The notes under the pieces are model-generated. The model saw only the letters and a list, made by a program, of their open reading frames with translations, searched no databases and was not told where the DNA came from. From Candidatus Nanopelagicales bacterium (GTDB lineage: Bacteria; Actinomycetota; Actinomycetes; S36-B12): a stretch of 64,000 nucleotides of DNA. Below are positions 41,105-60,518 of the stretch, one piece after another (the stretch's first letter is position 1; every line of letters begins with the position of its first letter). Location: contig SHUQ01000001.1 of NCBI GenBank assembly GCA_009694585.1, positions 7,815 to 71,814 of the forward strand, given 5' to 3'. The position numbers and the translations under genes are program-made.

Positions 41105-42189
<1,085 letters not shown>

Positions 42190-42198
42190 CGATTCGCA

Positions 42199-42696
42199 AT
42201 GGGTGTAGCAGTGATTTCTGGCGCGACCGTTTTAGCGACTGAGGCTGAAGCTGGCACCACCAACTTCCTAGTCCCGAACGGTACCTTCTTCTTCATCTTG
42301 GTGATTTTCCTAATTGTTTTTGGCGTGATTGCCAAATTCGTGGTGCAACCAGTGCAGAAAGTCTTGGACGAGCGTGACCGCTTGGTTGCCCAGACCGCAT
42401 TCGACAACCGCCGGGCCGCGGAGCAAGATGCGGCCGCCGAGTCCGAGTTCAAGCAGGAACTAACTTCGGCCCGATCTGAGGCAGGCGGCCTTCGAGACCA
42501 AGCTAGGTCAGAGGGACGCCAGGTTGCCGACGACCTGCGAGCTGGGGCGAACGACAAGGTGGCAGAAAAGTTGCGGCAGGCAAGTGAGGTACTAAAAGTC
42601 GAGGGGGATGCCCTCGCTCCAAGCCTCGATGCGAGCGTGGACAACTTGTCGGTGGCATTGGCTAACCGGATCCTCGGTGTGGATGGTAGGGGCTGA
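42199..42696 (+). CDS. atpF: F-type ATP synthase subunit b
   Basis: 165 aa. One N-terminal TM helix, then a charged coiled coil. Confidence 0.85.
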   Translation: MGVAVISGATVLATEAEAGTTNFLVPNGTFFFILVIFLIVFGVIAKFVVQPVQKVLDERDRLVAQTAFDNRRAAEQDAAAESEFKQELTSARSEAGGLRDQARSEGRQVADDLRAGANDKVAEKLRQASEVLKVEGDALAPSLDASVDNLSVALANRILGVDGRG

Positions 42697-44030
42697 TGGC
42701 TACTTTCATTGGGCAGCTCATCGGTTTCGCGGTGATTGTCCTGATCATCATGAAGTACGTCGTTCCACCCGTGCGCAAAATGATGGTAGAACGTCAGGCC
42801 GCGGTGCGCGCTGAACTCGAGGAGAGCGCCAAAGCCGGCCAGCGTCTTGCCGATGCCGACCGTTTTCGCGCACAGCGAATGGATGAGGGGCGCTTAGAGG
42901 CCGCTCACATTATTGACGAGGCCGCCTCGGACTCGGTTCGCATTGGCGAGCAGTTGCGTATTCAAGGCGGCGTCGAGGCCGAGCGTATTGAGGTGCAGGG
43001 CGACCAACAGGTTTTACTGATGCGGTCGCAACTTATTCGCGAACTTCGCGGTGAGCTTGGCGCGCAGGCATTGAGTAGGGCAACAGAAATCGTGAAAGCG
43101 TACGTAGCCGACCCGGCAGAACAGTCGGCAACTGTCGACAGGTTCCTCGACGAAGTCGAGTCGATGGCCCCGGCGCTCTTCACTCCAGAAGTCACGGCAA
43201 CCAACCTGCGTCCAGCCAGCCGCGAAGCGCAGGCGGAGGTGGTGGCTCGGTTTGATGCTGTAGCGGCACCACTTTCAGTTGATGATCTCTCGGCGCTGTC
43301 TGGTGAACTGGGTGGGGTCTACGCGCTGTTGCTGCGCGAGTCGACACTGGCACGCCATCTCGCTGAGACCGGTGGTGTAGTCGACTCCAAGCAAAAGCTG
43401 TTGGAGCAATTGTTCGCCAGCAAGGTGGGTCCTAGCACTTTGGCGATTCTCAGTACCGCGGTGTCGGCGCGCTGGTCGACAATAAGTGATTTCGTTCACT
43501 GCGTTGAGTACGTTGCCAGGCTCAGCCTGCTGGAGCGGGCCGACCGGGAGCATCAGGCCGACGAGGTGGCCGAGCAACTCTTCCGATTCGGTCGCGTGCT
43601 AGCAGCGCAACCGCGACTGACATCATTGCTAAGCGACTACCGCGAGCAGGCTTCTGGCCGGATCGCCTTACTGCGATCTATCTTGGATGCCGGCAGTGGC
43701 GCCAACCCAACGACCATCGCGTTCCTAGTCCAAACCATCGAACTACTGCATGGTGAGCGTGCCGACGAAGCCGTCCAGGAATTGGCCCAACTTGCGGCCG
43801 CTCGCCGCGGCGAGATTGTCGCCGAGGTAAATGCGGCAGCCGACCTCAGTGAATCCCAGCGGCAGCGTCTAACCGAGGTGCTCACGCGCATTTATCACCA
43901 CCCCGTGTCGGTGCGCCTTGTCGTCGGACCTAGGCTGCTGGGGGGCTTGTCGGTCACGATTGGCGACGAAGTCATTGACGGAACCCTTTCTGCCCGGCTG
44001 GCCGCAGCCGCGATGAAACTACCCAGCTAG
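42696..44030 (+). CDS. atpH: Fused ATP synthase b-like / delta subunit
   Basis: 444 aa. The N-terminal b-type TM plus coiled coil (MATFIGQLIGFAVIVLIIMKYVVPPV) joins to an OSCP/delta domain ending VIDGTLSARL. Confidence 0.85.
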   Translation: MATFIGQLIGFAVIVLIIMKYVVPPVRKMMVERQAAVRAELEESAKAGQRLADADRFRAQRMDEGRLEAAHIIDEAASDSVRIGEQLRIQGGVEAERIEVQGDQQVLLMRSQLIRELRGELGAQALSRATEIVKAYVADPAEQSATVDRFLDEVESMAPALFTPEVTATNLRPASREAQAEVVARFDAVAAPLSVDDLSALSGELGGVYALLLRESTLARHLAETGGVVDSKQKLLEQLFASKVGPSTLAILSTAVSARWSTISDFVHCVEYVARLSLLERADREHQADEVAEQLFRFGRVLAAQPRLTSLLSDYREQASGRIALLRSILDAGSGANPTTIAFLVQTIELLHGERADEAVQELAQLAAARRGEIVAEVNAAADLSESQRQRLTEVLTRIYHHPVSVRLVVGPRLLGGLSVTIGDEVIDGTLSARLAAAAMKLPS

Positions 44031-44094
44031 ATGAAGTTAGCCAACTAACGGTGCCTAATAGCCAACTACTAGGACGAAGAGGAAGACGAGCAAC

Positions 44095-45741
44095 ATGCCA
44101 GAGTTGACAATCTCCGCTCAAGACATTCAGGGCGCCATCGAGAACTACGTATCGGGTCTTGAGGTCGGCACCGGTCGTGAGGAGGTCGGGAGCGTAATCG
44201 ATTCCGGCGACGGTATCGCTCACGTTGAGGGCTTGCCATCGGTCATGGCCCAAGAGTTGCTGGAGTTCTCCGGCGGCGTCATGGGGATGGCTCTCAACCT
44301 CGACGAGCACCAAATCGGCGCGGTAATTCTGGGCGACTTCTCCAAGATCGAAGAGGGTCAGTCGGTCAAGGGGACAAAAGAGGTGCTCTCGGTTCCGGTT
44401 GGTGACGCGTTCCTTGGCCGGGTAGTCAACCCATTGGGCGAGCCGATCGATGGTCGCGGGGAGATCATCGCTGAACGTCGCCGCCCCCTTGAGTTGCAGG
44501 CGCCCTCGGTGGTCCAACGCCAAAGTGTCCATGAGCCGCTCCAGACTGGTATCAAGGCGATCGATGCGATGACGCCCATCGGGCGGGGTCAGCGCCAACT
44601 GATCATCGGCGACCGTAAGACGGGCAAGACCGCGGTATGTGTTGACACGATTTTGAACCAGCGCCAGAACTGGGAGACCGGGGATCCCGCCAAGCAGGTG
44701 CGTTGCGTATACGTCGCGATCGGCCAGAAGGGCACCACGATCGCCAGTGTGCGTCGGGCGTTGGATGAGGGCGGTGCGATGGAGTACACCACCATCGTTG
44801 CCTCACCGGCTTCTGATCCGGCCGGCTTCAAATACCTTGCCCCATACACCGGTTCGGCCATCGGTCAGCACTGGATGTACGAGGGCAAGCACGTGCTAAT
44901 CGTGTTTGACGATCTCACCAAGCATGCCGAGGCGTACCGCGCGATCTCCTTGTTGCTGCGCCGGCCGCCGGGCCGTGAGGCATACCCCGGCGACGTGTTC
45001 TACTTGCATTCGCGTTTGCTAGAGCGTTGCGCGAAGCTCTCCGATGAACTGGGTGCCGGGTCGATGACCGGCCTGCCGATCATCGAGACCAAGGCCAACG
45101 ATATTTCGGCTTACATCCCGACCAACGTCATCTCGATTACCGATGGCCAGTGCTTCTTGGAGACCGATCTATTCAACCAAGGCGTTCGCCCGGCTATCAA
45201 CGTCGGTGTTTCCGTATCTCGGGTAGGTGGCGCAGCGCAAATTAAGGCGATGAAGGAAGTAGCCGGTTCGCTGCGGCTGGATCTGTCGCAGTATCGAGAG
45301 TTGGAGGCCTTCGCGGCATTCGCCTCGGACCTAGATGCGGTTTCCAAGGCGCAGCTCGAGCGAGGTGCTCGATTGGTGGAGCTCTTGAAGCAAAATCAGT
45401 TCAGCCCCATGTCCGTTCAGGATCAGGTCGTGGCCATCTGGCTGGGAACCAGAGGCCACCTAGATTCCGTCCCCGTGGCTGATGTCACCCGCTTTGAGTG
45501 GGAGTTCATTGAGCATCTGAAGGTGTCGCGTGCGGGAATTTTCACCGAAATCAGGGACACCTTGAAACTCTCCGAAGACACTGAGCAGCAACTCGTAGTT
45601 GCCGTGGGCGACTTCAAAAAGGGTTTCGCCACCTCAGACGGGAGCTCGGTCATTCCCGAAGCTCATGTTGCGGCACTGGCTGAGGGCGACGTGGAGAAGG
45701 AGTCTGTCCAGGTGCACAAGCCGGCTCCGAAGAAGAAGTAA
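44095..45741 (+). CDS. atpA: F-type ATP synthase subunit alpha
   Basis: 548 aa, Walker A GDRKTGKT. Confidence 0.95.
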
Positions 45742-46664
45742 TGGCAGCGACATTACGCGAACTTCGCGGACGAATCCGCTCAGCGGAGTCGATCAAGAAA
45801 ATCACCAAGGCCCAAGAACTCATCGCGACGTCGCGAATAGCCAAGGCGCAGGCCCGGGTTCAAGCTGCCCGGCCATACTCGGAAGAGATCACCAAAATGC
45901 TTTCTGAGCTTGCCTCCGAAGCGGCACTTGACCACCCGCTTCTGGTGCCTAGGGAGAATCCCAAGCGCGCCGGTGTGCTGGTGGTGACTTCGGACCGCGG
46001 ACTGTGTGGTGGCTATAACGCGAATGTTTTGCGCTTGGCCGAGGAGTTGATTTCACTACTTCGTCAGGAGGGCAAAGCCCCGGTCATCTATGTGATCGGA
46101 CGCAAAGCGCAGGGCTATTTCAGCTTCCGCAATTGGGCCATAACGAAGGCCTGGGTAGGGATCTCTGAGCGGCCGACGTACGAGAACGCCCAGGAGATTG
46201 CCGACTCGTTGGTGGCGGCCTTTCTCGCCGGGGCTGACGACGACGGCGACTATCCGGGGGCCGATGGCACCTTGGGTGTCGATGAGTTGCATATCGTATT
46301 TACGGAGTTCCGATCGATGCTGTCCCAGACCGCAGATGCTCGACGAATCGCACCAATGGAAGTGGAGTACGTCGAAGAGGATCACGGGCCACAGACTTTA
46401 TTCTCCTTCGAGCCCGACGCCAGCACGCTCTTCGAGTCGCTCCTGCCTCGATACGTGGCAACTCGAATCTTCTCGGCACTACTTGAGTCGGCTGCCTCAG
46501 AATCGGCTGCTCGCCGCCGTGCCATGAAAGCGGCCACTGACAATGCTGATGACCTCATCAAAGAACTAACCTTGATGTCCAACCGTGAGCGTCAAGCTCA
46601 GATCACCCAAGAAATAAGCGAAATCGTCGGCGGGGCCAATGCCCTAGCCGATGCCGCCAAGTAG
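45741..46664 (+). CDS. atpG: F-type ATP synthase subunit gamma
   Basis: 307 aa. N-terminal [20 protein letters not shown] and C-terminal [12 protein letters not shown]. Confidence 0.95.
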
Positions 46665-48143
<1,479 letters not shown>

Positions 48144-48603: not shown

Positions 48604-49179
48604 TCATCTATTGGCGCCGGGCTGCCACAGCACATCGCCGCCGGCTTGCTTATTGGCAAAGCGGGCGAGAATGAAGAGTAAATCGCTCAGCCGATTGACG
48701 TAAGTTGCGGTTAAGTAGTTCATGCCGCCGTGGTAGGTATCCCAGGCAGCCCAAATCGACCGCTCCGCCCGCCGTGCCACGGTGCGTGCCACGTGCAATT
48801 GGGCTGCTGTGCTGGTGCCCCCGGGCAAAACAAATGAACGTAGTGGCTCAAGTTGGTCATTGTATTTGTCGCAGGCTTGTTCTAGATGGTCGACATAGGC
48901 TTGGGTGACGCGAAGGGGCTCGTGCGCAGGGCTGTCTACAACCGGGGTACATAGATCGGCGCCAACATCAAATAGATCATTTTGGATGCGTAGCAGCAGG
49001 ACCCGAACCTCGTCTGAGACTTTGGTGGCGGCCAGCACCATCCCGATGGCACAGTTGGCCTCATCAACGTCGGCATAGGCCTTAAGGCGTGGGTCGTTCT
49101 TGCCGGTCCGGCTCATATCCCCAAGTGAGGTGGTGCCGTCATCACCGGTGCGAGTATAGATCTTGGTCAGGTTAACCAT
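48604..49179 (-). CDS. ATP:cob(I)alamin adenosyltransferase, PduO type
   Basis: 191 aa beginning KIYTRTGDDGTTSL, the signature PduO-type N-terminus. Confidence 0.85.
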   Translation of the reverse strand: MVNLTKIYTRTGDDGTTSLGDMSRTGKNDPRLKAYADVDEANCAIGMVLAATKVSDEVRVLLLRIQNDLFDVGADLCTPVVDSPAHEPLRVTQAYVDHLEQACDKYNDQLEPLRSFVLPGGTSTAAQLHVARTVARRAERSIWAAWDTYHGGMNYLTATYVNRLSDLLFILARFANKQAGGDVLWQPGANR

Positions 49180-50884: not shown

Positions 50885-52927
50885 GTGACCGGGCCTCGCT
50901 ATCCTTATGGGGTGCCCACTGCCATGGATCAATCGCGTGCCAAGGACAAGCCGTGGCTGATCCGGACTTATGCCGGTCACTCCTCGCCTAGTGAATCCAA
51001 TGCCCTGTACCGGCGGAACTTGGCCAAAGGACAGACCGGACTGTCGGTGGCTTTTGATCTGCCCACCCAAACCGGGTACGACCCAGATTCACCGATGGCC
51101 CTCGGCGAGGTTGGCAAAGTCGGGGTGCCGATTGCTCACCTAGGCAATATGCGAGCGTTGCTGGAGGCGATTCCGCTCGACAAAATGAATACCTCAATGA
51201 CCATCAACGCCACCGCGATGTGGATGCTGGCGTTATATGTGGTGGCCGCTGAAGATACTGGGGTACCCGCCAACCTATTGCAGGGTACGACCCAGAACGA
51301 CATCATCAAGGAGTACCTGTCGCGCGGAACATATGTGTTCCCCCCCGAGCCATCCCTTCGGTTGATCACTGACATGGTCACTTATACTGTGAAGAATATT
51401 CCGAAATGGAATCCGATCAACATTTGTAGCTACCACCTACAAGAGGCCGGAGCGACTCCGGTTCAGGAAATTGCCTACGCCATGAGCACCGCGATCGCGG
51501 TGCTCGATGCGGTGCGCGACAGCGGTCAGGTAGATCCTGCTGACTTTGGTGATGTGGTAGCGCGAATGTCCTTCTTTGTCAATGCCGGCGTGCGTTTCGT
51601 TGAAGAAATGTGCAAGATGCGCGCTTTCGTGGAGATTTGGGATCGCATTACCTTGACGAGATACGGTGTTCAGAACCCAGATCAGCGAAGGTTCAGGTAC
51701 GGGGTGCAAGTTAACTCACTGGGTTTAACTGAAGCGCAACCTGAGAACAATGTGCAACGAATAGTTCTTGAGATGCTCGCTGTGACGATGTCAAAGGATG
51801 CAAGGGCGCGCGCGATTCAACTCCCAACCTGGAATGAGGCGTTAGGGTTGCCGCGCGCCTGGGATCAGCAGTGGTCACTTCGCATTCAGCAAGTACTTGC
51901 CTTCGAGAGCGATCTACTGGAGTACGAGGATCTCTTCACCGGCTCTGTGGTCATTGAAAGAATTGTCAACGAAATGATTGCCGAAGCCACCACTGAACTC
52001 GACTATGTGCTCGAGCTAGGGGGTGCGGTCGCGGCGGTCGAGAGTGGATATATGAAACAGCAGATGGTGCAGGCTCACTCCCAGCGGCGCACTCGTATTG
52101 AATCTGGTGAACAAATCGTCGTAGGAGTAAATGCTTTCCAGGAAAGTGAAGCTAATCCGCTGCTTGCTGATCTAGATGCTGCCGTGCTCGTGGTAGATCC
52201 CGAGGTTGAAGCCCAGGCAATTGCAGACCTTAAATCGTGGCGGGCTGCACGTGATCACGAGCAGGTTGCTAAGGCTCTGGCGCAACTGCATGAACAGGCC
52301 AAGACTTCCGTGAACCTCATGAAAGCGACTATCGAATGTGTTCGTGTAGGTGTTACCACCGGCGAGTGGACGTCCACACTGCGCGACGTATTCGGCGAAT
52401 ATCGGGCACCTACAGGTATCGGTGGGGTGGTCGGGGCATCCAGTTCTGATCTGGACGAGGTGCGCCGTGCGGTTGCAATTACCTCGGATGAATGTGGTTC
52501 ACCACTTCGTTTGCTGGTTGGCAAGCCTGGCTTAGATGGACACTCCAATGGTGCCGAGCAAATCGCGGTCCGCGCCCGTGATGCGGGATTCGAAGTTATC
52601 TATCAAGGCATCAGATTGACCCCGGAGCAGATCGTGGCGGCGGCAGTTGCCGAGGATGTGGATGTAGTGGGCCTGTCAATTCTCTCCGGATCACATCGGG
52701 CCTTGGTGCCGGCGGTGGTAGATGGGCTGCGTGCCCGCGGCCTAACTGAGGTGCCCGTGGTGGTCGGTGGCATCATTCCGGACGCCGATGCCACTTGGTT
52801 GCGTGAGCGCGGGGTGGCCGAGGTATTTACTCCTAAGGATTACGACGCGACCGTCATCATGCGGAGCATTGTTGACACGGTGCGTGCCGCCAAATCAATG
52901 CCACCCTTGCCAAGTCCGTGCGCATAG
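50885..52927 (+). CDS. Adenosylcobalamin-dependent acyl-CoA mutase, single-chain (MeaA/ethylmalonyl-CoA-mutase-like)
   Basis: 680 aa. [15 protein letters not shown]...[22 protein letters not shown] resembles MeaA as I recall it. The C-terminal B12 domain has DxHxxG (LDGHSNG). Substrate not assignable. Confidence 0.8.
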
Positions 52928-53007: not shown

Positions 53008-53151
53008 TTGAGCGACCCACCCGAACCTCGCTCGGAGATCACAGTTCCAAGACCTGCGAGGGAGGTGCCGCGATGACTATCACGATCCTCAATTCCTTCT
53101 TCGGGGTCGCGGTCCTGATCCTCTCGGCGGCTGGCCTTGTTGTCGTCTTCG
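53008..53151 (+). repeat. Inverted-repeat arm A: orphan copy of the permease RBS plus first 79 nt
   Basis: Exact reverse complement of 58460-58603, checked by hand at 144/144 nt. Contains GAGGGAGG and an ATG at 53073 encoding [26 protein letters not shown]. Confidence 0.95.
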
Positions 53152-53634
53152 ATCACCATGACGTCGCTGCAGTTCAACGGCAAATGCTGCCGCATCCCGA
53201 GAACGTACGGCGTAGTGAAGCTCATAGTCAGCACCCTGAACCTTCAGCTGCGCAGCCATCGACATCAACGGGGTCACGCCGATCCCGCCAGCCAGCAGCA
53301 CAGAACACTTGGATTCCGAGACCAGGTGAAAGTCATTTCTCGGGTCCGAGACCTGCAGCGAATCGCCCGGGCTAAGACCGTGCATGAATTGAGATCCGCC
53401 ATTGCTGATTTCTTGCTGGCGCACGGCGAGTCGGTACTCCGATTGGTCCGGCGGTCAGACTTCAGTCACGAGCGAGTAGCACCGCGTCGTGCCGTCAGGA
53501 ATTGCAATTCGCACATGGGATCCGGGGGTGAATCTCGGGAGTGCCGTGCGAGTCGCACGAGCGAGAGTCAACTCTCGAACGCCTGGAGCGATGAGTTGAC
53601 TGTCGATCACGACCAACTGCAAACTCATCGACAT
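53152..53634 (-). pseudogene. PDR/VanB-type FMN-NAD ferredoxin reductase, nonsense-interrupted and 3'-truncated
   Basis: GGAG plus ATG 53634 gives MSMSLQLVVID...GSHVRIAIPDGTTRCYSLVTEV, then an in-frame TGA (53455-53457). It continues PPDQSEYRLAVRQQEISNGGSQFMH...VLLAGGIGVTPLMSM...ELHYAVRSRDAAAFAVELQRRHGD and ends at the repeat boundary 53151/53152. The rest of the NAD domain and the 2Fe-2S domain are absent. Confidence 0.7.
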
Positions 53635-53729: not shown

Positions 53730-55043
53730 TCAGGACAAGCGGCAATCAAGGGGCAATCTCGGCGATGCCACGAGGCGCTCAACGGCGGATCCCACGTGCA
53801 GCACGGCCGACTCTCCGTAGTGTCGACCAATGATTTGCAGGCCCACCGGCATCTGATCACCTGACCTCTGGCACGGAACGCTCATCGCCGGTAATCCAAT
53901 GATCGAAGCCGGGACATTGAGTCCAAGCAACGCCGGGACCACCGGAACATCCCCTTGAGGGAGCGCAACCACAGTGTCGGTCGACAAGGGCGCCACACAT
54001 GGAAGCGTCGGGGCAGTCACGACATCAACATGTCGAGTTGCTTCGATCCACGAGCGGGCGATGGCAGCACGGATCCTTTGAGCGCGGATGTACTGGCGCG
54101 CAGGGCGCAACGCTCCCACCTCGAGATATGACCGCACCTCGTCTGAATACATGTCCGCTTTCGCCGGATACCACTCCCGATGGGCGTCCAGACTCTCCGG
54201 CAGGTTGACGGCGAAGGCCACAGCAACCGCGTATTCAAGCAAGGGAATGTGCACAGGCACGAGGACCGCTCCCGCTTCCTCAAGTGCCGACAACGAGTCT
54301 CGGACAGCGTTCTCGACCTCGGGATCAACGTTGTCGAAGAAGTAGTTCGTCGGGACTCCGATGCGAACACCTGCAACATCCTTGGCGAGATCGCGTGCGT
54401 AATCTTCAGCTCGATCCGATATGACCGACAGCACATCCGCCACATCGGCGACCGTTCGGCAGATGGGACCTACGGCGTCAAAGCTCCAGGCCATCGTCAC
54501 TACACCCGTCACCGGCACGAGACCGTGCGTCGGACGCAACCCGACCACTCCGCAACAGGCAGCAGGGATACGCACTGAACCCAACGTGTCAGTCCCCAGT
54601 GAGAGGTCGCAGTAGCCTGCGGCCACAACTGCGGCGGACCCTCCACTTGAACCACCAACTACTCGATCGAGATCGATGGGGTTGTTCGTCTCAGGGGTCG
54701 TCACACCAAAGGCAAATTCGTGGGTTCGAGCCTTTCCGATGAGGATGGCTCCCGCCCGGCTCATTCGATCGACCGCGACCGCATCGGTGTCAGGAATCCG
54801 CCCTTCTAGGACCTTAGAGCCCGCACTTGTTTCGATGCCCGCGGTATCGAAGAGATCCTTTGCCGCCCAGAGCCGGCCCTCAAGTCGCCGAGACCTCCCT
54901 ATGCTTACCGCATCATCTGACGCGCCCGCCTCCGACATGGCGCGGGTTAGGCATGTCCTGGCAAAGGCCGAGACCAGTGGCTCTCGCTCCTTGATGGACA
55001 CCTCACTTCTCGCAACAGCCGCAGCGGCCGAGATACCCGTCAC
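53730..55043 (-). CDS. Amidase-signature enzyme (AtzE/GatA-like)
   Basis: 437 aa. Catalytic Lys region LIGKARTHEF, GGSSGGSAA, GTDTLGSVRIPAACCG. Its GTG start overlaps the TGA of the upstream 67-aa ORF (GTGA). Confidence 0.9.
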   Translation of the reverse strand: MTGISAAAAVARSEVSIKEREPLVSAFARTCLTRAMSEAGASDDAVSIGRSRRLEGRLWAAKDLFDTAGIETSAGSKVLEGRIPDTDAVAVDRMSRAGAILIGKARTHEFAFGVTTPETNNPIDLDRVVGGSSGGSAAVVAAGYCDLSLGTDTLGSVRIPAACCGVVGLRPTHGLVPVTGVVTMAWSFDAVGPICRTVADVADVLSVISDRAEDYARDLAKDVAGVRIGVPTNYFFDNVDPEVENAVRDSLSALEEAGAVLVPVHIPLLEYAVAVAFAVNLPESLDAHREWYPAKADMYSDEVRSYLEVGALRPARQYIRAQRIRAAIARSWIEATRHVDVVTAPTLPCVAPLSTDTVVALPQGDVPVVPALLGLNVPASIIGLPAMSVPCQRSGDQMPVGLQIIGRHYGESAVLHVGSAVERLVASPRLPLDCRLS

Positions 55044-55243
55044 GACGTCTCTCCATAGCGAGCGACCGGCGGCGCAGACAGCAGGAGCAGTGATTCCGGG
55101 AAGTCGTCTATGGCATCGAACATGCCGCGGAACGTGGCGTCGATTGCAGCGATCACTTCGGCTCGCTCGCCCGGAGGCAGATGTACTCCCGCCGACTCAG
55201 CAATCACCACAACCTCCTCGCTTGTGAACTCACGGGACGTCAT
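55040..55243 (-). CDS. 67-aa acidic protein, candidate AtzG/GatC-like amidase partner
   Basis: MTSREFTSEEVVVIAESAGVHLPPGERAEVIAAIDATFRGMFDAIDDFPE... Preceded by GGAAGGAG and translationally coupled to the amidase. Size and position match AtzG-type subunits. Homology not verified. Confidence 0.55.
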   Translation of the reverse strand: MTSREFTSEEVVVIAESAGVHLPPGERAEVIAAIDATFRGMFDAIDDFPESLLLLSAPPVARYGETS

Positions 55244-55255
55244 ATTTGCTCCTTC

Positions 55256-55945
55256 CTAGAGAACGAGATGTCTTTCGATTTGTTCCCGCGATGAGCCAGT
55301 GACCGGGCCCGCCTCGACAACCCGCCCGCTCGACATGACGATGAAGTCATGCGCAAGGGGAAGGGCGTAGTTCAAGTGCTGTTCCACAAGGAGGATGCTC
55401 AAGCCTCTGCTGCTCGCACGTCTGACCGCCTCTTGGAACATTCCGAGCAGGCCCGGCTGAACGCCCTCGACGATCTCGTCGAGAATCGCTACACGGGAGG
55501 CGTTCGCCAATGTTCGAACGGCAATGAGCATCTTCTGCTCACCGCCGCTGAGCGTCCCCGCCTTTTGTGTCATGCGCTCGCGAATCCGCGGAAAGCAGTT
55601 GAGCATCGCTTCCTCCTCTCTATTGTCACCGCCCTGTCGAGCCAATTTGAGGTTCGTTTCAACGGTCAGGTCCGAGAAAATCGAACGTTCCTGCGCGGCA
55701 TAGCCGACCCCCGCCCTGACGATCACATGGGTTCGCTTTCCGCTGATCGGTTCGCCATCAAGAAGCACTCGCCCACAAGAAAGCGGGAGATAGCCCATGA
55801 TCCCCCTCAAGAGCGTCGTCTTCCCGACTCCGTTCCGGCCGAAGATTGCCACGATCTGACCGGGCTCGACTGATAGCGAGACATCAGTAACCACCTGGGT
55901 GGTGCCATAGCCCGTGCCGAGATGCTCCACCTCCAGTCCCGTCAT
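55256..55945 (-). CDS. ABC transporter ATP-binding protein (LivF/UrtE-like)
   Basis: 229 aa. Walker A GRNGVGKTT, signature LSGGEQKM, Walker B ILDE. ATGA overlap with the upstream gene. Confidence 0.9.
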   Translation of the reverse strand: MTGLEVEHLGTGYGTTQVVTDVSLSVEPGQIVAIFGRNGVGKTTLLRGIMGYLPLSCGRVLLDGEPISGKRTHVIVRAGVGYAAQERSIFSDLTVETNLKLARQGGDNREEEAMLNCFPRIRERMTQKAGTLSGGEQKMLIAVRTLANASRVAILDEIVEGVQPGLLGMFQEAVRRASSRGLSILLVEQHLNYALPLAHDFIVMSSGRVVEAGPVTGSSREQIERHLVL

Positions 55946-57714
55946 CCTCCCTCCCCCAGGTAGAGGTCGCGAACCTTGCGATCCTCGCTTACCTCCGAGA
56001 CCGTGCCATCTGCAATGAGGGCTCCCTGATCGAGGACGAGAATGCGATCGGCAATGCTTCGCACGAAGTCGAAGTCATGTTCAACGATCAAAACCGCAGC
56101 ACCACTTCTCGCGAGGTAGACGAGCACCTGCCCGATAGCTGCGCGGTCAGCGGACTCCATTCCCGCCGTAGGTTCGTCGAGTAGGACGACCTGGGACTGC
56201 GAGCCGAGGACCATGCATACCTCGAGGAACTGCTTCTGCCCGTGAGCCAAACTGCCGGCGTCGTCATTGAGCCGTGCGAGTAGACCGTGCTGCCGCGCAA
56301 GCGACATGACATCTTCTGGGATCGGGAGGCATTGATCGCGAACCAGCCAATCCCTCATTCGCAACTTGGGGTCACGCGCTCCGATGAACAGGTTGTCAGC
56401 GACTGACAGGCTCTCGAACACACGCGGATTTTGAAACTTGCGCTTCACTCCAAGTCGCGCGACCTTCCAGATCGGTATCCCGAGCATCTCTTTGCCCACG
56501 AGGATCGCCTTGCCGTGCGCATCGGAGAGTGCTCCGCTCAGGAATGCGATCAGTGTCGACTTTCCTGCGCCATTCGGCCCGATCAAGGCAGTCACGTGGC
56601 CGAAGTCGAAGGACACTCGATCAACGTCGAGTGCAGTGAAGGAACCGAATCGCTGGATAAGCTTTTCGCCTACGAATGCCGGGCCCTCTGGGTGCGAAGA
56701 CGAGGCGACTGCGGGCTCGAGTTGCAGAGGCCTAGGCGCATTGAGTCTGGAACCAAGGACTCGGATCGGCCAATAGAGCCCGTCCGGCAGGAACATCACG
56801 ACGATGATGAAGATCAAAGCTAGAAGGATCTGCCAGTAGTCAAGGAAGATTCCACTCAACTCGTTGCTCACCATATTCACAAGCAGAGCACCAAATGCAG
56901 CTGCTGCCAGTGAGTTTCTCCCCCCGATGGCGCACCAGAGCACGATGAAAGTGGAGAACGCAAAGCCGATTCTGTCCGGAGCCGCGATCTGGGAATAGAG
57001 TGCGTCGAGCACGCCTGCGAAGGCCGTCACGATGGCACCGAGGACAAAAACCCTGCGCTGTACGAGTTCGGCGTTCGTTCCGAAGAACCGTATTCTCATC
57101 GAGTCGTCGCGCACGCTTGCAATAACGCGGCCAAGGTTGCTGCGCGTTATCACCGCCATGCCGAGCAGCAACATGGCGAACACCACAAAGCCGATGTAAT
57201 AGCTCAGCAGGGGATCCTTCGGAAGCACCCGATCTAACGGGATGCCATTTTGACCACCCGTTACGGACGTGAACTTCAACGCGAGTTGTTCAAACGCGAC
57301 CGCCGTGCAGAAGGTCATGACAGAAATCAGGAAAGCACCTGCCCGAACACCGAACGACACCCGAGCAAGGATCCATGCGAGCGCCCCGGCCGCCGCGCAG
57401 CCGATGAAGATGCCGGCAACGAGCCCTGGAGCTACAGGGTACGACTCGATCCCCTTGGCAGCGGCATACGCACCAAGCCCAAAGAATGCCGCCTGTCCAA
57501 GGGCCAAGATTCCGCAGTAGCCCCACACGAGTGCCAACGCGCTGGCCGCCATCGCGTACGGGAAATAGGAGGCCAGACTGGAGACTCTGTACGAGTCCAG
57601 CAGGAACGGACAGGCTGCCAAAATGATGAGCAGGCACACCGGATCGCGCCACCACGGCGAGTTGAGGATCGGTACTGCCGAAGCGAACGACCAACCGTTC
57701 AACGCGTTCTTCAC
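55942..57714 (-). CDS. Fused ABC permease (LivM/UrtC-like) and ATPase (LivG/UrtD-like)
   Basis: 590 aa. An N-terminal ~330-aa polytopic permease, then Walker A GPNGAGKST, signature-region LAHGQKQFLE, Walker B LLDEP. Confidence 0.9.
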   Translation of the reverse strand: MKNALNGWSFASAVPILNSPWWRDPVCLLIILAACPFLLDSYRVSSLASYFPYAMAASALALVWGYCGILALGQAAFFGLGAYAAAKGIESYPVAPGLVAGIFIGCAAAGALAWILARVSFGVRAGAFLISVMTFCTAVAFEQLALKFTSVTGGQNGIPLDRVLPKDPLLSYYIGFVVFAMLLLGMAVITRSNLGRVIASVRDDSMRIRFFGTNAELVQRRVFVLGAIVTAFAGVLDALYSQIAAPDRIGFAFSTFIVLWCAIGGRNSLAAAAFGALLVNMVSNELSGIFLDYWQILLALIFIIVVMFLPDGLYWPIRVLGSRLNAPRPLQLEPAVASSSHPEGPAFVGEKLIQRFGSFTALDVDRVSFDFGHVTALIGPNGAGKSTLIAFLSGALSDAHGKAILVGKEMLGIPIWKVARLGVKRKFQNPRVFESLSVADNLFIGARDPKLRMRDWLVRDQCLPIPEDVMSLARQHGLLARLNDDAGSLAHGQKQFLEVCMVLGSQSQVVLLDEPTAGMESADRAAIGQVLVYLARSGAAVLIVEHDFDFVRSIADRILVLDQGALIADGTVSEVSEDRKVRDLYLGEGG

Positions 57715-58538
57715 CGACCTGACCTACTATCCTTGATCTTCATGGCAATCATGGCAACGACGAGCACCGCGATACTTGCGGTCGTAGCATCCGCGATCGT
57801 GGCAAATATCCCGCCAGTTCCGCCCAGAAGTCCAGCAGCCGGACCAATACCCAGCAACGTTGGGCCAGCGAGAATCGTTGTGAGGAAGCCACCGACAAGG
57901 AAGTTTCCGCCCATGGTGGGAGCGATGGTGACCATGGGAGCAAGCAGTGCACCAGCGACACCTGCTAGGAGCCACCCTGTCCCGAAACTCAAGGCGTACA
58001 CTCGATCTACGTTAATCCCAATGCCCCGTGCAAGGTCGGGATCACTGATGACCGCCCGCACTGTTTTACCCAGCGACGTGAACCGCTCGATGACCCACAT
58101 TGCGGTGAGGAGCACAGCAGCAAAGGCGATGATGAAGAGTCGGTAGGCGCTGAAATCACTGCCGAGGATGCTCACTGGGGCATCGAAGGGGGCATCCAAC
58201 GAGCTGTACCCGGGGTCGAATGCACCGATGAGCTCACGGATAAGCAAGCCCAGCCCCCACGTCGCGAGGATGGTGTCGAGAATTCGTCGATAGAGCCGCC
58301 GGATGAGGAGTCGCTCGATTACCACGCCAAGGACACCAATACCGATCCCGGCCACAACAATGCCCAGCCAGAACGGCATCCAGTCCCTCGCGATGAGAGC
58401 GACGTAGGCACCAAGCATCATGGCTTCACCGTGTGCGAAGTTCACGACCTTCATGAGACCGAAGACGACAACAAGGCCAGCCGCCGAGAGGATCAGGACC
58501 GCGACCCCGAAGAAGGAATTGAGGATCGTGATAGTCAT
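57711..58538 (-). CDS. ABC permease (LivH/UrtB-like)
   Basis: ATG 58538 is preceded by GAGGGAGG. The 29-codon upstream extension in the track ORF is rejected. Polytopic, overlaps the next gene by 4 nt. Confidence 0.9.
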   Translation of the reverse strand: MTITILNSFFGVAVLILSAAGLVVVFGLMKVVNFAHGEAMMLGAYVALIARDWMPFWLGIVVAGIGIGVLGVVIERLLIRRLYRRILDTILATWGLGLLIRELIGAFDPGYSSLDAPFDAPVSILGSDFSAYRLFIIAFAAVLLTAMWVIERFTSLGKTVRAVISDPDLARGIGINVDRVYALSFGTGWLLAGVAGALLAPMVTIAPTMGGNFLVGGFLTTILAGPTLLGIGPAAGLLGGTGGIFATIADATTASIAVLVVAMIAMKIKDSRSGR

Positions 58539-58603
58539 CGCGGCACCTCCCTCGCAGGTCTTGGAACTGTGATCTCCGAGCGAGGTTCGGGTGGGTCGCT
58601 CAA
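58460..58603 (-). repeat. Inverted-repeat arm B (native permease start region)
   Basis: Identical to the reverse complement of 53008-53151. Spans 65 nt of the SBP-permease intergenic region plus the first 79 nt of the permease gene. Confidence 0.95.
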
Positions 58604-58653
58604 CTCGGCGTCCCACCCGAACCATCTCACTTCAGTCTTACGCGGTCAGTGCC

Positions 58654-59901
58654 TTAGAACGAGCACTGCTCCCCGGGTGATACATCCGGGAACGCCTTCA
58701 CGAGTGAGTACGTACCGGTTTCGTCAGCGACAAGGAGATGCATCGTGGCGGTTGCATGGTGCGTCTTCGCATCGATTGTGAGTGCTCCACGCGGAGAGTC
58801 AGGGAGTTGGATACCAGCCAGCGCCTTGATCAATGCAGATGCCTCGGTCGTGCCTGCTGCGTTGGCTGCCTTGGCGAGGGCCTGAATACCGTCGTAGGTC
58901 GCCTCAGTCAGCGTATTCTGAGAGAAGGCATCTGGATTCGCGGCCTTGTAGGCAGCAATCATCGCCTTGTTCGCCGGAGTATCAACCCCGGCAAAGTAGC
59001 CGAATCCGCCGTAAATGCCCGCTGCTGCTGCACCAAGCGCCTGAGCGTAGTCATCGGTCATCGTCAACGAAAGTTGCTTCGTTGACTTGTCCATGCCTGA
59101 TTGACGCCAGTTCTTCACGAACGCACCGAAATCACCACCGACGAGGCCCGTAACGATTGAGTCCGCGCCTGCGTCCTGCGCCTTCTTGAGGATTGCGCCG
59201 AAGTCCGAGGTACCGAACGGAACGAGCTCTTGACCCACGACCTTGCCGCCAGCAGACTCGATTGACTTCTGTGCCAGCGGGAACACCGTCTGCGGCCATA
59301 CATAGTCGTGACCGATGAAGAAAACCTTCTTGGCGCCGACATCCGTGACGAAGCTCTTGTAGATCGGGTCGTACTGCGCAGGAACCTCTCCGATGACGAA
59401 CATGTTTGGCAGACAGGCACCCCCCTCGTAAAGGGTCGTGTAGACAAAGGGAATCCCAGACTCTTCAACCTGACTGATGAAGCCCTCGCGAGTCGCGCTG
59501 TCCGTCATCGCGACAAGTGCGTTCACGCCATCCTGCTCTAGGAGCTTGCTCACAGCCTTGGCACCGGTCGTCGGATTAGATCCATCATCAGCAATGATGA
59601 TCTCAATCGGCTGACCATTGACACCCCCGAGATCGTTGATCTGCTTCATTGCAAGTTCGACAGTCGCCTGTACCGGCGGGCCATAGATTGCCGCAGGCCC
59701 AGTCAACGAGGTAACCACGCCTACTTTCAGTGGAGCCGATGGCGCCATTGACGCGGGCGCCATTGACGCGCTGGTAGCAGTCTCCGGTTGGCTCGCTGCT
59801 GTTGACGCCGACTCTGTTCCTGACGTACTTCCTGAGCTGCACGCTGCTAAGAGCATGCCCGCGGCGACCGTAGCAACCGCAAATGTGTTTCGCTTAAGCA
59901 T
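58654..59901 (-). CDS. Lipoprotein substrate-binding protein, AmiC/UrtA-like (amide/urea-binding branch of the Liv family)
   Basis: ATG 59901 after GGAGGA gives MLKRNTFAVATVAAGMLLAAC (lipobox). The core FVYTTLYEGGACLPNMF, FFIGHDYVWPQ, GVDTPANKAMI parallels AmiC motifs (YPTLYEGFE..PN, FIGSDYIYP, SIDTPASRAF) as I recall them. Confidence 0.8.
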   Translation of the reverse strand: MLKRNTFAVATVAAGMLLAACSSGSTSGTESASTAASQPETATSASMAPASMAPSAPLKVGVVTSLTGPAAIYGPPVQATVELAMKQINDLGGVNGQPIEIIIADDGSNPTTGAKAVSKLLEQDGVNALVAMTDSATREGFISQVEESGIPFVYTTLYEGGACLPNMFVIGEVPAQYDPIYKSFVTDVGAKKVFFIGHDYVWPQTVFPLAQKSIESAGGKVVGQELVPFGTSDFGAILKKAQDAGADSIVTGLVGGDFGAFVKNWRQSGMDKSTKQLSLTMTDDYAQALGAAAAGIYGGFGYFAGVDTPANKAMIAAYKAANPDAFSQNTLTEATYDGIQALAKAANAAGTTEASALIKALAGIQLPDSPRGALTIDAKTHHATATMHLLVADETGTYSLVKAFPDVSPGEQCSF

Positions 59902-59932
59902 GTAATTCCTCCAAGTGGAATAGGGTTGACAA

Positions 59933-59963
59933 AGTGTATGACTTCTCATATATTTCTGTCAAG
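59933..59963 (-). promoter_or_regulatory. Candidate promoter/operator (site 2 of the shared motif) for the transporter-amidase operon
   Basis: Minus strand: TTGACA, 18-nt AT-rich spacer with ATATATGA, then TACACT, ~30 nt upstream of the SBP ATG. Lies in the divergent region with the MarR gene. Palindrome CTGAGgcttCTCAG at 59971-59984. Confidence 0.45.
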
Positions 59964-60026
59964 GACTTTTCTGAGGCTTCTCAGGAGTTGAATTCATGCC
60001 AAGTACGCTAACGTTTTCCGAACACG

Positions 60027-60518
60027 ATGACCGGCAAACGGGGTTGGAGATCGGTTTCCATGGCCGAAGAAGCATTCGTCCCCGGATATCTCCTGTATCT
60101 GTTGACGGCGTCAAGTCAGGCCGCAAGCGGTCAATTCCACAGCTTCGTGAAGTCTCAGGGCCTTCGTGTTCCCGAGTGGCGAATACTTGCCTGCTTGCGG
60201 GACGCAGACGGTCAGATGATCACCGAGCTCTCGCGCAATGCACTGTTCGAGCAGTCCCATCTCACGAAGACCGTCAACCAGATGGAGGCACGAAGGCTCG
60301 TCACACGCAAGACAGACTCGCACGATCTGAGGCGCGTTCGAATTTGGCTCACGAGTCGTGGTCGCAAGCTGGCCGATCAACTGGTCACCGAAGCACGCGA
60401 GCACGAAGCGAAGCTTCTCGGCTCAATGTCAACATCGGATGCCCAGCGAATCAAGCCGGCACTGCGCTCACTTCTCGACCTGCTGAGCGAAGCCGACGTC
60501 GACATCGACATCGCATAG
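60027..60518 (+). CDS. MarR family transcriptional regulator
   Basis: 163 aa (or start at ATG 60060). Winged-helix core ITELSRNALFEQSHLTKTVNQMEARRLVTRKTDSHDLRRVRIWLTSRG. Confidence 0.85.
   Translation: MTGKRGWRSVSMAEEAFVPGYLLYLLTASSQAASGQFHSFVKSQGLRVPEWRILACLRDADGQMITELSRNALFEQSHLTKTVNQMEARRLVTRKTDSHDLRRVRIWLTSRGRKLADQLVTEAREHEAKLLGSMSTSDAQRIKPALRSLLDLLSEADVDIDIA

Follow-up and report, generated by a model that had tools for sequence, protein, structure and literature searches.

Does a 67-amino-acid (aa) open reading frame (ORF) lying directly upstream of an amidase gene encode a subunit of that amidase, and which compound is handled by the operon that holds both genes? These questions are raised by contig SHUQ01000001.1 of a Candidatus Nanopelagicales metagenome-assembled genome, of which a stretch of 64,000 nucleotides (nt), here called the window, was analyzed. 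A previous sequence-only reading of this DNA had described a six-gene operon coupling an amide-type ATP-binding cassette (ABC) importer to an amidase-signature enzyme, and the domains identified here support this coupling. The precedent for the small gene is AtzG, an obligate non-catalytic partner derived from GatC, without which the amidase AtzE is insoluble (PMC6219798). We give slightly better than even chances to the view that the module serves the uptake and hydrolysis of a carboxamide, most likely an aryl-acetamide (indole-3-acetamide, phenylacetamide), by an AtzEG-like two-subunit amidase. Judged by the families' own criteria, the module falls outside the AtzE, AtzG-like, GatCAB, UrtA and IaaH families.

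Organization of the operon

The minus strand from 59901 down to 53730 carries six ORFs, encoding in this order a binding protein, a permease, a permease-ATPase fusion, an ATPase, the 67-aa protein and the amidase (Table 1). Three junctions consist of 4-nt start/stop overlaps (57714/57711, GTGA; 55945/55942, ATGA; 55043/55040, GTGA), and the stop of the ATPase gene is separated from the start of the 67-aa ORF by a 12-nt spacer containing GGAAGGAG, a strong ribosome-binding site (RBS). The sequence-only reading had reported six ORFs packed with such overlaps or short gaps with strong RBSs, a second permease fused to an ATPase, and a 67-aa acidic protein next to an amidase with the motifs GGSSGGSAA and GSVRIPA. 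All of these were confirmed, the small protein having 12 Asp/Glu against 4 Arg.

The same gene order was found in 13 other loci, namely nine near-identical contigs and four loci whose amidases are 53-58% identical to that of the window. In each of them an ORF of 63-67 aa is kept directly upstream of the amidase gene, as the survey of neighborhoods proposed with the earlier reading has now established. The arrangement is not due to chance, because the gene order repeats in these 13 loci and the small ORF is under purifying selection, with a ratio of nonsynonymous to synonymous polymorphism (pN/pS) of 0.18 against 0.13 for the amidase. The 67-aa ORF is likewise a genuine gene, since it combines a strong RBS and GTGA coupling to the amidase with this pN/pS value and a conserved position.

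Relationship of the 67-aa protein to GatC and AtzG

Standard family models did not recognize the small protein. When it and two orthologues were compared with Pfam and NCBIfam at E-values up to 10, no relevant match was obtained, including to PF13318 and to the HpxX model NF033624; authentic AtzG, used as a control, matched PF13318 at 7.9e-9. A single-sequence search of the PDB gave a chance match only. Among 5.8 billion proteins, only four close homologues came up in a word-index search, and a full hidden Markov model (HMM) scan of 1.8 billion representatives with a shallow profile yielded no further one.

Profile-profile comparisons were made with 43 true GatC proteins from gatCAB loci (about 95 aa) and with four short partner ORFs located upstream of other amidases. 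As calculated by hhalign, the orthologues of the small ORF matched GatC with a probability of 87.5% (E 3.6e-6, 54 columns from the N-terminus), the other amidase-partner ORFs with 96.3% (E 1.5e-9) and the AtzG family alignment with 51% (E 1.5e-4, 53 columns). The three alignments share one register, and 30 column-shuffled controls gave probabilities of at most 1.1%. The AtzG family itself reached 1.7% against GatC, and the 67-aa protein therefore appears to be nearer to GatC than AtzG is. When a broader profile with two intermediates was searched against the PDB, it found GatC 4wj3_C at 8.4e-6, another GatC chain at 5e-4 and AtzG 6c62_C at 0.11. By these alignments the protein is a remote homologue of GatC. 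The earlier proposal of an AtzG/GatC-like partner missed by standard HMM libraries thus holds for its GatC-like character, but the protein is not a member of PF13318.

Several other observations concern this small protein. In the PDB, the orthologue-only profile matched acyl-carrier proteins weakly, with E-values of at least 0.1. Identity as an acyl-carrier protein was rejected: no DSL-type motif was present and the profile-profile comparison favored GatC. In a Foldseek search with an AlphaFold model of the protein, rank one was taken by the N-terminal helical domain of the Rhodococcus N-771 amidase (PDB 3a1k; 46 columns, root-mean-square deviation 2.2, probability 0.89, E 0.48), which hints that in some amidases a counterpart of the GatC-like partner may be part of the same polypeptide. 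With a combined partner profile, six further ORFs of this short, GatC-like type were recovered, each upstream of a non-GatA amidase. At least ten such ORFs, of 57-108 aa, were recorded (L010, L011, L023, L037, L044, L047, L091, L151, L161 and L172), in Pseudomonadota, Chloroflexota, Actinomycetota and unclassified metagenome contigs. GatC-like amidase partners seem to be more widespread than the AtzG family alone.

The amidase and its presumed partner

In the clade alignment of the amidase, K62, S132, S133 and S156 are invariant; they make up a Ser-cisSer-Lys core in which Lys62, Ser132 and Ser156 are the catalytic residues. AtzE-family models gave the best scores, 293.2 bits for NF006631 (cut-off 461) and 284.3 bits for TIGR02715 (cut-off 425.75), both below threshold. 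Among structures in the PDB, GatA (3.9e-56) and AtzE (6c62_A, 4.2e-52) are about equally near. A rough neighbor-joining tree, constructed without support values, placed the window amidase in a clade separate from AtzE and from true GatA. Next to this clade lie further amidases whose genes are likewise preceded by a small ORF, and most of the partnerless amidases sampled group in a separate large clade. The enzyme had been called AtzE-like, which is correct in that the AtzE models are the nearest, but these scores and the separate branch speak against membership. Scans of genomes and metagenomes with the amidase alignment, which responds to generic motifs, gave relatives of at most 44% identity among the matches listed, and also true GatC and partner ORFs. 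One orthologous amidase (L001 10201-11586) is 461 aa long, having lost the stop codon used in the window and the other orthologues and gained a 24-aa tail.

The pair resembles AtzG-AtzE, the 1-carboxybiuret hydrolase of Pseudomonas sp. ADP, and HpxX-HpxY in that a gene for a protein of about 67 aa lies directly upstream of an amidase-signature enzyme, both of GatC/GatA stock, and in that the small-protein families align in one register. It differs in scoring below the family thresholds, in its actinobacterial rather than proteobacterial host, in a context of aromatic-acid rather than ureide catabolism, and in lacking atzH/hpxZ, no such NTF2-like ORF being found downstream of the pair, either in the window or elsewhere among the related loci. 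With GatC-GatA it shares the small gene in first position, an N-terminal helix-loop-helix, the amidase fold and the catalytic triad; unlike them it has no GatB, its small protein has no counterpart to the last third of GatC, and its genes belong to a catabolic transporter operon. AtzEG is the only characterized catabolic amidase requiring a GatC-like partner that was found here, and what may be an equivalent pair is now placed in a different phylum and pathway. Heterologous expression of such amidases may be unsuccessful if the small gene is left out.

The importer and its binding protein

Both permeases matched Pfam family BPD_transp_2, and ABC_tran was found in the ATPase half of the fusion and in the 229-aa protein. 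For all four transporter proteins the top-scoring family models were those of the Urt system, each below its curated cut-off. The binding protein scored 197.5 bits with UrtA model TIGR03407 (cut-off 492.75), permease 1 scored 169.7-177 bits with the UrtB models (169.7 against a cut-off of 250.3), the fusion 169.5 bits with UrtC (296.2) and 208.2 bits with UrtD (304.1), and the second ATPase 200.8 bits with UrtE (285.8). The subunit types are those of UrtABCDE, but the counterparts of UrtC and UrtD are fused, a fusion kept at 576-590 aa across all related loci, and no urease genes lie nearby.

A LivJ-type model gave the binding protein 75 bits. Its nearest solved relative is 8tg1 (3.9e-46), whose pocket residues look like those of a urea binder, and three UrtA structures and AmiC are also among the nearest. 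The E-values were about 1.5-1.6e-37 for UrtA (7s6e) and 1.6-1.8e-27 for AmiC against about 1e-9 for LivJ, and the match to the solved structure of the auxin-binding IadK2 was weak (3.8e-15). These comparisons support a place in the AmiC/UrtA branch of the cluster-B binding proteins, with the urea and amide rather than the amino-acid binders, in agreement with the sequence-only reading, which had set the protein apart from LivJ/K.

In UrtA, eight residues that contact urea are strictly conserved across bacteria and archaea: Trp120, Ser122, Tyr141, Gln144, Glu146, Tyr190, Asn246 and Ser274 (PMC10392092). The first nitrogen of urea is contacted by the side chain of Gln144 and by Asn246, the oxygen by Ser122 and Tyr190, and the second nitrogen by Ser122 together with the Gln144 main chain (PMC10392092). 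In the sequence alignment, the pocket of the window protein reads T-S-Y-L-E-Y-W-(V/G)-T against W-S-Y-Q-E-Y-F-N-S in UrtA. Ser122, Tyr141, Glu146 and Tyr190 are retained, and the changes are Trp120 to Thr, Gln144 to Leu, Asn246 to Val/Gly and Ser274 to Thr. This pattern is invariant in five orthologues of 54-94% identity. The protein is not UrtA and appears not to be a urea binder, because it has other residues in place of the strictly conserved Trp120, Gln144 and Asn246 and its UrtA score lies below the cut-off.

[quoted passage not shown] The two differ by Tyr83 to Thr, Pro107 to Leu and Tyr152 to Trp, and their overall identity is 26%. Moreover, AmiC acts in the cytoplasm as a regulator together with AmiR, whereas the window protein is a lipoprotein of an ABC importer. 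Its pocket may thus be AmiC-like but roomier, still gripping a carboxamide while leaving space for a larger hydrophobic substituent. The locus suggests how a urea or acetamide pocket could widen for a larger amide.

Catabolic genes accompanying the module

In every orthologous locus the module is accompanied by a PaaK-family acid-coenzyme A (CoA) ligase, which adjoins the amidase, and by a thiolase, which follows the ligase. The window ligase scored 259.9 bits with PaaK model NF041878 (cut-off 700) and 219.7 bits with TIGR02155 (cut-off 646.3), below both thresholds. At the family level it can be assigned to PaaK, on the basis of its AMP-binding_C_2 domain and of its top PDB matches, the phenylacetate-CoA ligases (7e-53). 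The thiolase is divergent, with 129 bits against a cut-off of 240 for TIGR01930. Regulators of the PaaX family were found in three orthologous loci and a MarR regulator in the window lineage. PaaX regulators are associated with phenylacetyl-CoA.

The operon had been taken to end with its sixth gene, which did not hold. The nine close contigs (92-99% nt identity) run on past the amidase, the six that are long enough show a reductase and a Rieske oxygenase, and the window keeps a pseudogene remnant of this block. The contigs L001 (at 92% nt identity) and L173-L176 (at 96-97%), which come from different samples, have a spacer of about 95 nt after the amidase gene and then genes for a reductase and a Rieske alpha subunit. 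A Rieske beta subunit, a CoA ligase and a short-chain dehydrogenase/reductase (SDR) are additionally encoded in L001, L173, L174 and L176, and the shorter L175 has the alpha subunit only. Besides L001, five contigs carry the reductase and alpha genes, and four of the five also the beta gene. The contigs L002, L003 and L177 (93-99% identity) are shorter and end before or within the block. The Rieske alpha subunit, taken from L001, matched the Variovorax IadD structures at 2.4e-146 and 5e-145, and the next match was at 6e-32. The iad-like block spans 11773-18756 in L001, where a thiolase-like gene comes after it, and 11410-16603 in L173.

In Variovorax, the iad locus for auxin degradation comprises the IadCDE oxygenase, the IadF ligase, the IadG thiolase, MarR regulators and the IadK2 binding protein (PMC12633357). 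The close relatives of the window resemble it in the order of reductase, Rieske alpha and beta subunits, CoA ligase and SDR after the amidase and in an alpha subunit (L001) orthologous to IadD, and the window itself has a MarR regulator and a ligase/thiolase pair. In the iad locus as described, the free acid enters by way of IadK2, which belongs to another class of binding protein (PMC10374108), and no IadK2-type protein was visible in loci of the L001 and L173-L176 type. The present loci differ in having an amide-type importer and an amidase upstream, and the window lacks the oxygenase genes. A term search of three papers on the iad locus gave no amidase-signature enzyme upstream; the one related entry was IadI, which carries the annotation kynurenine formamidase and is suggested to be a broad-specificity amidase. 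The locus suggests a concrete link of an amide-type importer to iad auxin-degradation genes in freshwater actinobacteria, and the iad loci of Nanopelagicales-type bacteria may merit their own study.

Proposed pathway and alternative explanations

From these observations we infer a pathway, and with it that the two proteins form a complex, which substrate is used and in which direction the flux runs. The membrane-anchored AmiC-like binding protein would capture the amide, retaining the residues that grip C(=O)NH2 and having exchanged those for urea nitrogen for small or hydrophobic ones. The Urt-type ABC transporter, consisting of permease, permease-ATPase fusion and ATPase, would import it. 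In the cytoplasm, a Ser-cisSer-Lys amidase of the same stock as GatA and AtzE would free ammonia and the acid. The 67-aa GatC-derived subunit would be made together with the amidase by translational coupling and, by analogy with AtzG-AtzE and GatC-GatA, would wrap the enzyme and keep it folded and soluble. The acid would then pass to the neighboring PaaK-family CoA ligase and the thiolase, under MarR control, and in the closest relatives it would also reach the IadCDE-type oxygenase encoded downstream, the first step of auxin degradation. Routing from amide to acid to CoA ester is familiar from aldoxime-nitrile gene clusters.

The sequence-only reading had held that the substrate, an amide or ureide, could not be read from sequence. 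An aryl-acetamide rather than a ureide is proposed here because of the PaaK-family ligase, the thiolase, the PaaX/MarR regulators and the iad genes, and in the window lineage indole-3-acetamide would be the specific candidate. Amidase-signature enzymes that hydrolyze both indole-3-acetamide and phenylacetamide are documented (PMC4844348). A bolder version of this proposal, which we consider doubtful, would see in the small protein an unrecognized family of GatC-derived mini-subunits, obligatory for a clade of catabolic amidases. In planktonic Nanopelagicales, this pair would form the entry to an auxin-amide pathway, in which the AmiC-like lipoprotein takes up indole-3-acetamide with high affinity, the Urt-type transporter imports it, and the amidase releases indole-3-acetic acid for IadCDE-type degradation. 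If so, the amide and not the free acid would be the form of auxin harvested by these freshwater bacteria.

A number of results weigh against the aryl-acetamide proposal and its two-subunit enzyme. The amidase scored 273.8 bits with the indoleacetamide hydrolase model NF005688, far from the cut-off of 532, and the ligase resembles 2-hydroxyisobutyryl-CoA synthetase (1.8e-50) about as much as it does PaaK. No iad genes were found in the distant orthologous loci (53-58% amidase identity) on the sequence at hand. In the close relatives, the 95-nt gap before the iad block is AT-rich and may hold a promoter of its own, and adjacency need not mean a single pathway. The argument from the binding pocket is drawn from a sequence alignment. 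As for the small protein, its homology depends on profile-profile comparison and on intermediates, and a plain HMM search of the PDB with the orthologue-only profile found neither GatC nor AtzG. Its AlphaFold model, with helices at 8-17 and 24-46 and an extended tail, is of modest quality (mean pLDDT 69), and although nine of the top 12 Foldseek matches were GatC chains, every E-value exceeded 0.4 and none was significant.

Two other substrates have to be weighed. A small aliphatic amide or ureide (acetamide, formamide, biuret or an oxalurate-like compound) might be scavenged purely for nitrogen by an AtzE/HpxY-like amidase. The leading NCBIfam models of the amidase (AtzE) and of the transporter (Urt) fit this idea, as does the AmiC-like polar set kept in the binding protein, and atzG-atzE clusters often adjoin ABC transporters for nitrogen compounds (PMC6219798). 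All the AtzE and Urt scores, however, lie below the curated cut-offs. No atzH/hpxZ, allophanate hydrolase or urease gene is located near the module, three of the urea-contacting residues that UrtA strictly conserves have been exchanged, and the change of AmiC Tyr83 to Thr enlarges the pocket. The conserved PaaK-family ligase, thiolase and PaaX/MarR regulators, joined in close relatives by iadCDE, act on an aromatic-acid carbon skeleton, and we regard nitrogen scavenging as unlikely. The module might also form a self-contained pathway for a beta-keto amide (a 3-oxoacyl amide such as acetoacetamide or benzoylacetamide), the amidase yielding the beta-keto acid, the ligase beta-ketoacyl-CoA and the thiolase two acyl-CoAs. 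In the distant loci the only catabolic genes by the transporter are those for partner, amidase, ligase and thiolase, often with overlapping stops and starts, a set that would be chemically sufficient only for such a substrate, and the low score of the thiolase makes it atypical. Against this, the analysis turned up no precedent, the solved enzymes closest to the ligase use aryl-acetates or 2-hydroxyisobutyrate, PaaX is generally linked to phenylacetyl-CoA, and the fixed junction with iadCDE in the window lineage would be left unexplained; this pathway seems quite improbable.

The remaining alternatives concern the pair itself. The NCBI annotation labels the amidase (MSO26494.1, 454 aa) as 'GatCAB subunit A' and the small ORF as a 'hypothetical protein'. 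That the two are GatC and GatA of a transfer RNA-dependent amidotransferase would agree with the GatC-like small ORF and with GatA structures as top PDB matches of the amidase. The GatA model, however, gave 263 bits against a cut-off of 481, no gatB is found in the locus, and true GatA forms its own clade in the rough tree. The small protein, at 67 aa against about 95 for true GatC, is without the C-terminal third, and the genes are translationally coupled within a transporter operon whose arrangement is conserved across loci. The label is almost certainly wrong, and this explanation, to which we attach practically no probability, was rejected. Finally, the 67-aa ORF might be conserved but dispensable or vestigial, with an amidase that works alone. 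It has no family model and few homologues in the protein collections searched, and most of the surveyed amidases of about 40% identity have no detectable partner ORF. Its pN/pS, the retention of position, length and coupling down to 53% amidase identity, the GatC homology that is significant against shuffled controls, and the precedent of AtzG (PMC6219798) nevertheless make a dispensable ORF very unlikely.

Gene starts, promoters and flanking regions

The coordinates of the module and of the neighboring features are given in Table 1.

Table 1. Features of the amide module and its surroundings in the window
Feature	Coordinates	Strand	Evidence
Lipoprotein substrate-binding protein, 415 aa	58654..59901	-	Peripla_BP_6 1.5e-86; lipobox LLAAC
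Permease 1, UrtB-like, 275 aa	57711..58538	-	BPD_transp_2 1.7e-28
Permease 2 + ATPase fusion, UrtC-like + UrtD-like, 590 aa	55942..57714	-	BPD_transp_2 residues 45-306; ABC_tran 368-517
Second ATPase, UrtE-like, 229 aa	55256..55945	-	ABC_tran 1.2e-26
67-aa acidic GatC-like mini-subunit, presumed amidase partner	55040..55243	-	RBS, GTGA overlap, synteny, hhalign
Amidase-signature hydrolase, 437 aa	53730..55043	-	PF01425 1.2e-93
Truncated pseudogene of IadC-like reductase	53148..53634	-	487 nt; 89% nt identity to L001
Inverted duplicate of permease-1 RBS + first 27 codons	53008..53154	+	Partner arm 58457-58603; 147 nt, 99% complementary
Divergent promoter region, importer operon / MarR gene	59902..60026	.	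Consensus matches only
MarR-family regulator, HpaR-like	60027..60518	+	HpaR model 56 bits, below cut-off; MarR Pfam in L001, L173 orthologues
PaaK-family acid-CoA ligase, 438 aa	60568..61884	+	AMP-binding + AMP-binding_C_2
Divergent thiolase, 392 aa	61881..63059	+	Thiolase_N, Thiolase_C; 4-nt overlap with ligase gene

The longest ORF of the binding protein extends to 59949. The start at 59901 encodes MLKRNTFAVATVAAGMLLAAC, a signal peptide with the terminal lipobox LLAAC, which bears out the earlier description of the protein as a lipoprotein. This start, also that of the sequence-only reading, is the better one, because of the lipobox peptide and of a -35/-10 match located 32 nt upstream. The longest ORF of permease 1 begins at 58625; the gene calls of relatives give 275 aa, GAAGGAGG precedes the ATG at 58538, and 58538 is most likely the start. 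The NCBI amidase spans 53730-55094, starting 17 codons upstream at an ATC codon and overlapping the small ORF. The GTG at 55043, preceded by a GGAGAG site, appears to be a better start. The divergent promoter region contains TTGACA-18-TACACT on the minus strand (59962-59933) and TTGACA-17-TATATT on the plus strand (59926-59954), both as consensus matches only, and a search of 59902..60026 for a palindromic operator found none.

To the left, the homology of the window to all eight relatives that reach this point stops exactly at 53148. L173-L177 align at 96-99% over spans including the reductase remnant (53148-53634), and a TGG-to-TGA stop in the remnant occurs in the window and in no relative. 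Apart from this truncated iadC-like pseudogene, the IadD/IadE oxygenase and IadC reductase genes present in relatives are absent from the window. The relatives carry the 5' sequence of the permease-1 gene that forms the 147-nt arm once only. The evidence favors loss of the downstream auxin-oxygenase block by rearrangement in the strain of the window, with importer, partner and amidase intact. A real loss is preferred over an assembly error because the TGG-to-TGA stop is unique to the window; the 147-nt inverted repeat would be a lineage-specific rearrangement junction, and an assembly chimera is less likely. The repeat had also been considered as the flank of a mobile unit, an idea rejected on the lineage-specific junction seen against the relatives.

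The right flank varies: homology to L001 ends at about 63069 and to L173 at about 63328, and the neighboring genes encode Lsr2 in one case and an AAA_14 ATPase in the other. These differences are consistent with a variable genomic region. The suggestion that the module is an accessory insertion would agree with flanks that differ between close relatives, but the G+C content is not deviant.

Core genes lie to the left of the junction, including those for a fused mutase, a murA-like protein, a cobalamin adenosyltransferase and the ATP synthase operon. The cobalamin adenosyltransferase (48604-49179) and the 680-aa fused methylmalonyl-CoA-mutase-like protein with its own B12-binding domain (50885-52927) have no homology to the loci of the relatives, and these B12-related genes are probably unrelated to the amide module. 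In the atp operon (41105-48143), which is otherwise ordinary, the gene at 42696-44030 encodes a 444-aa ATP synthase subunit with both b-type and delta (OSCP) domains.

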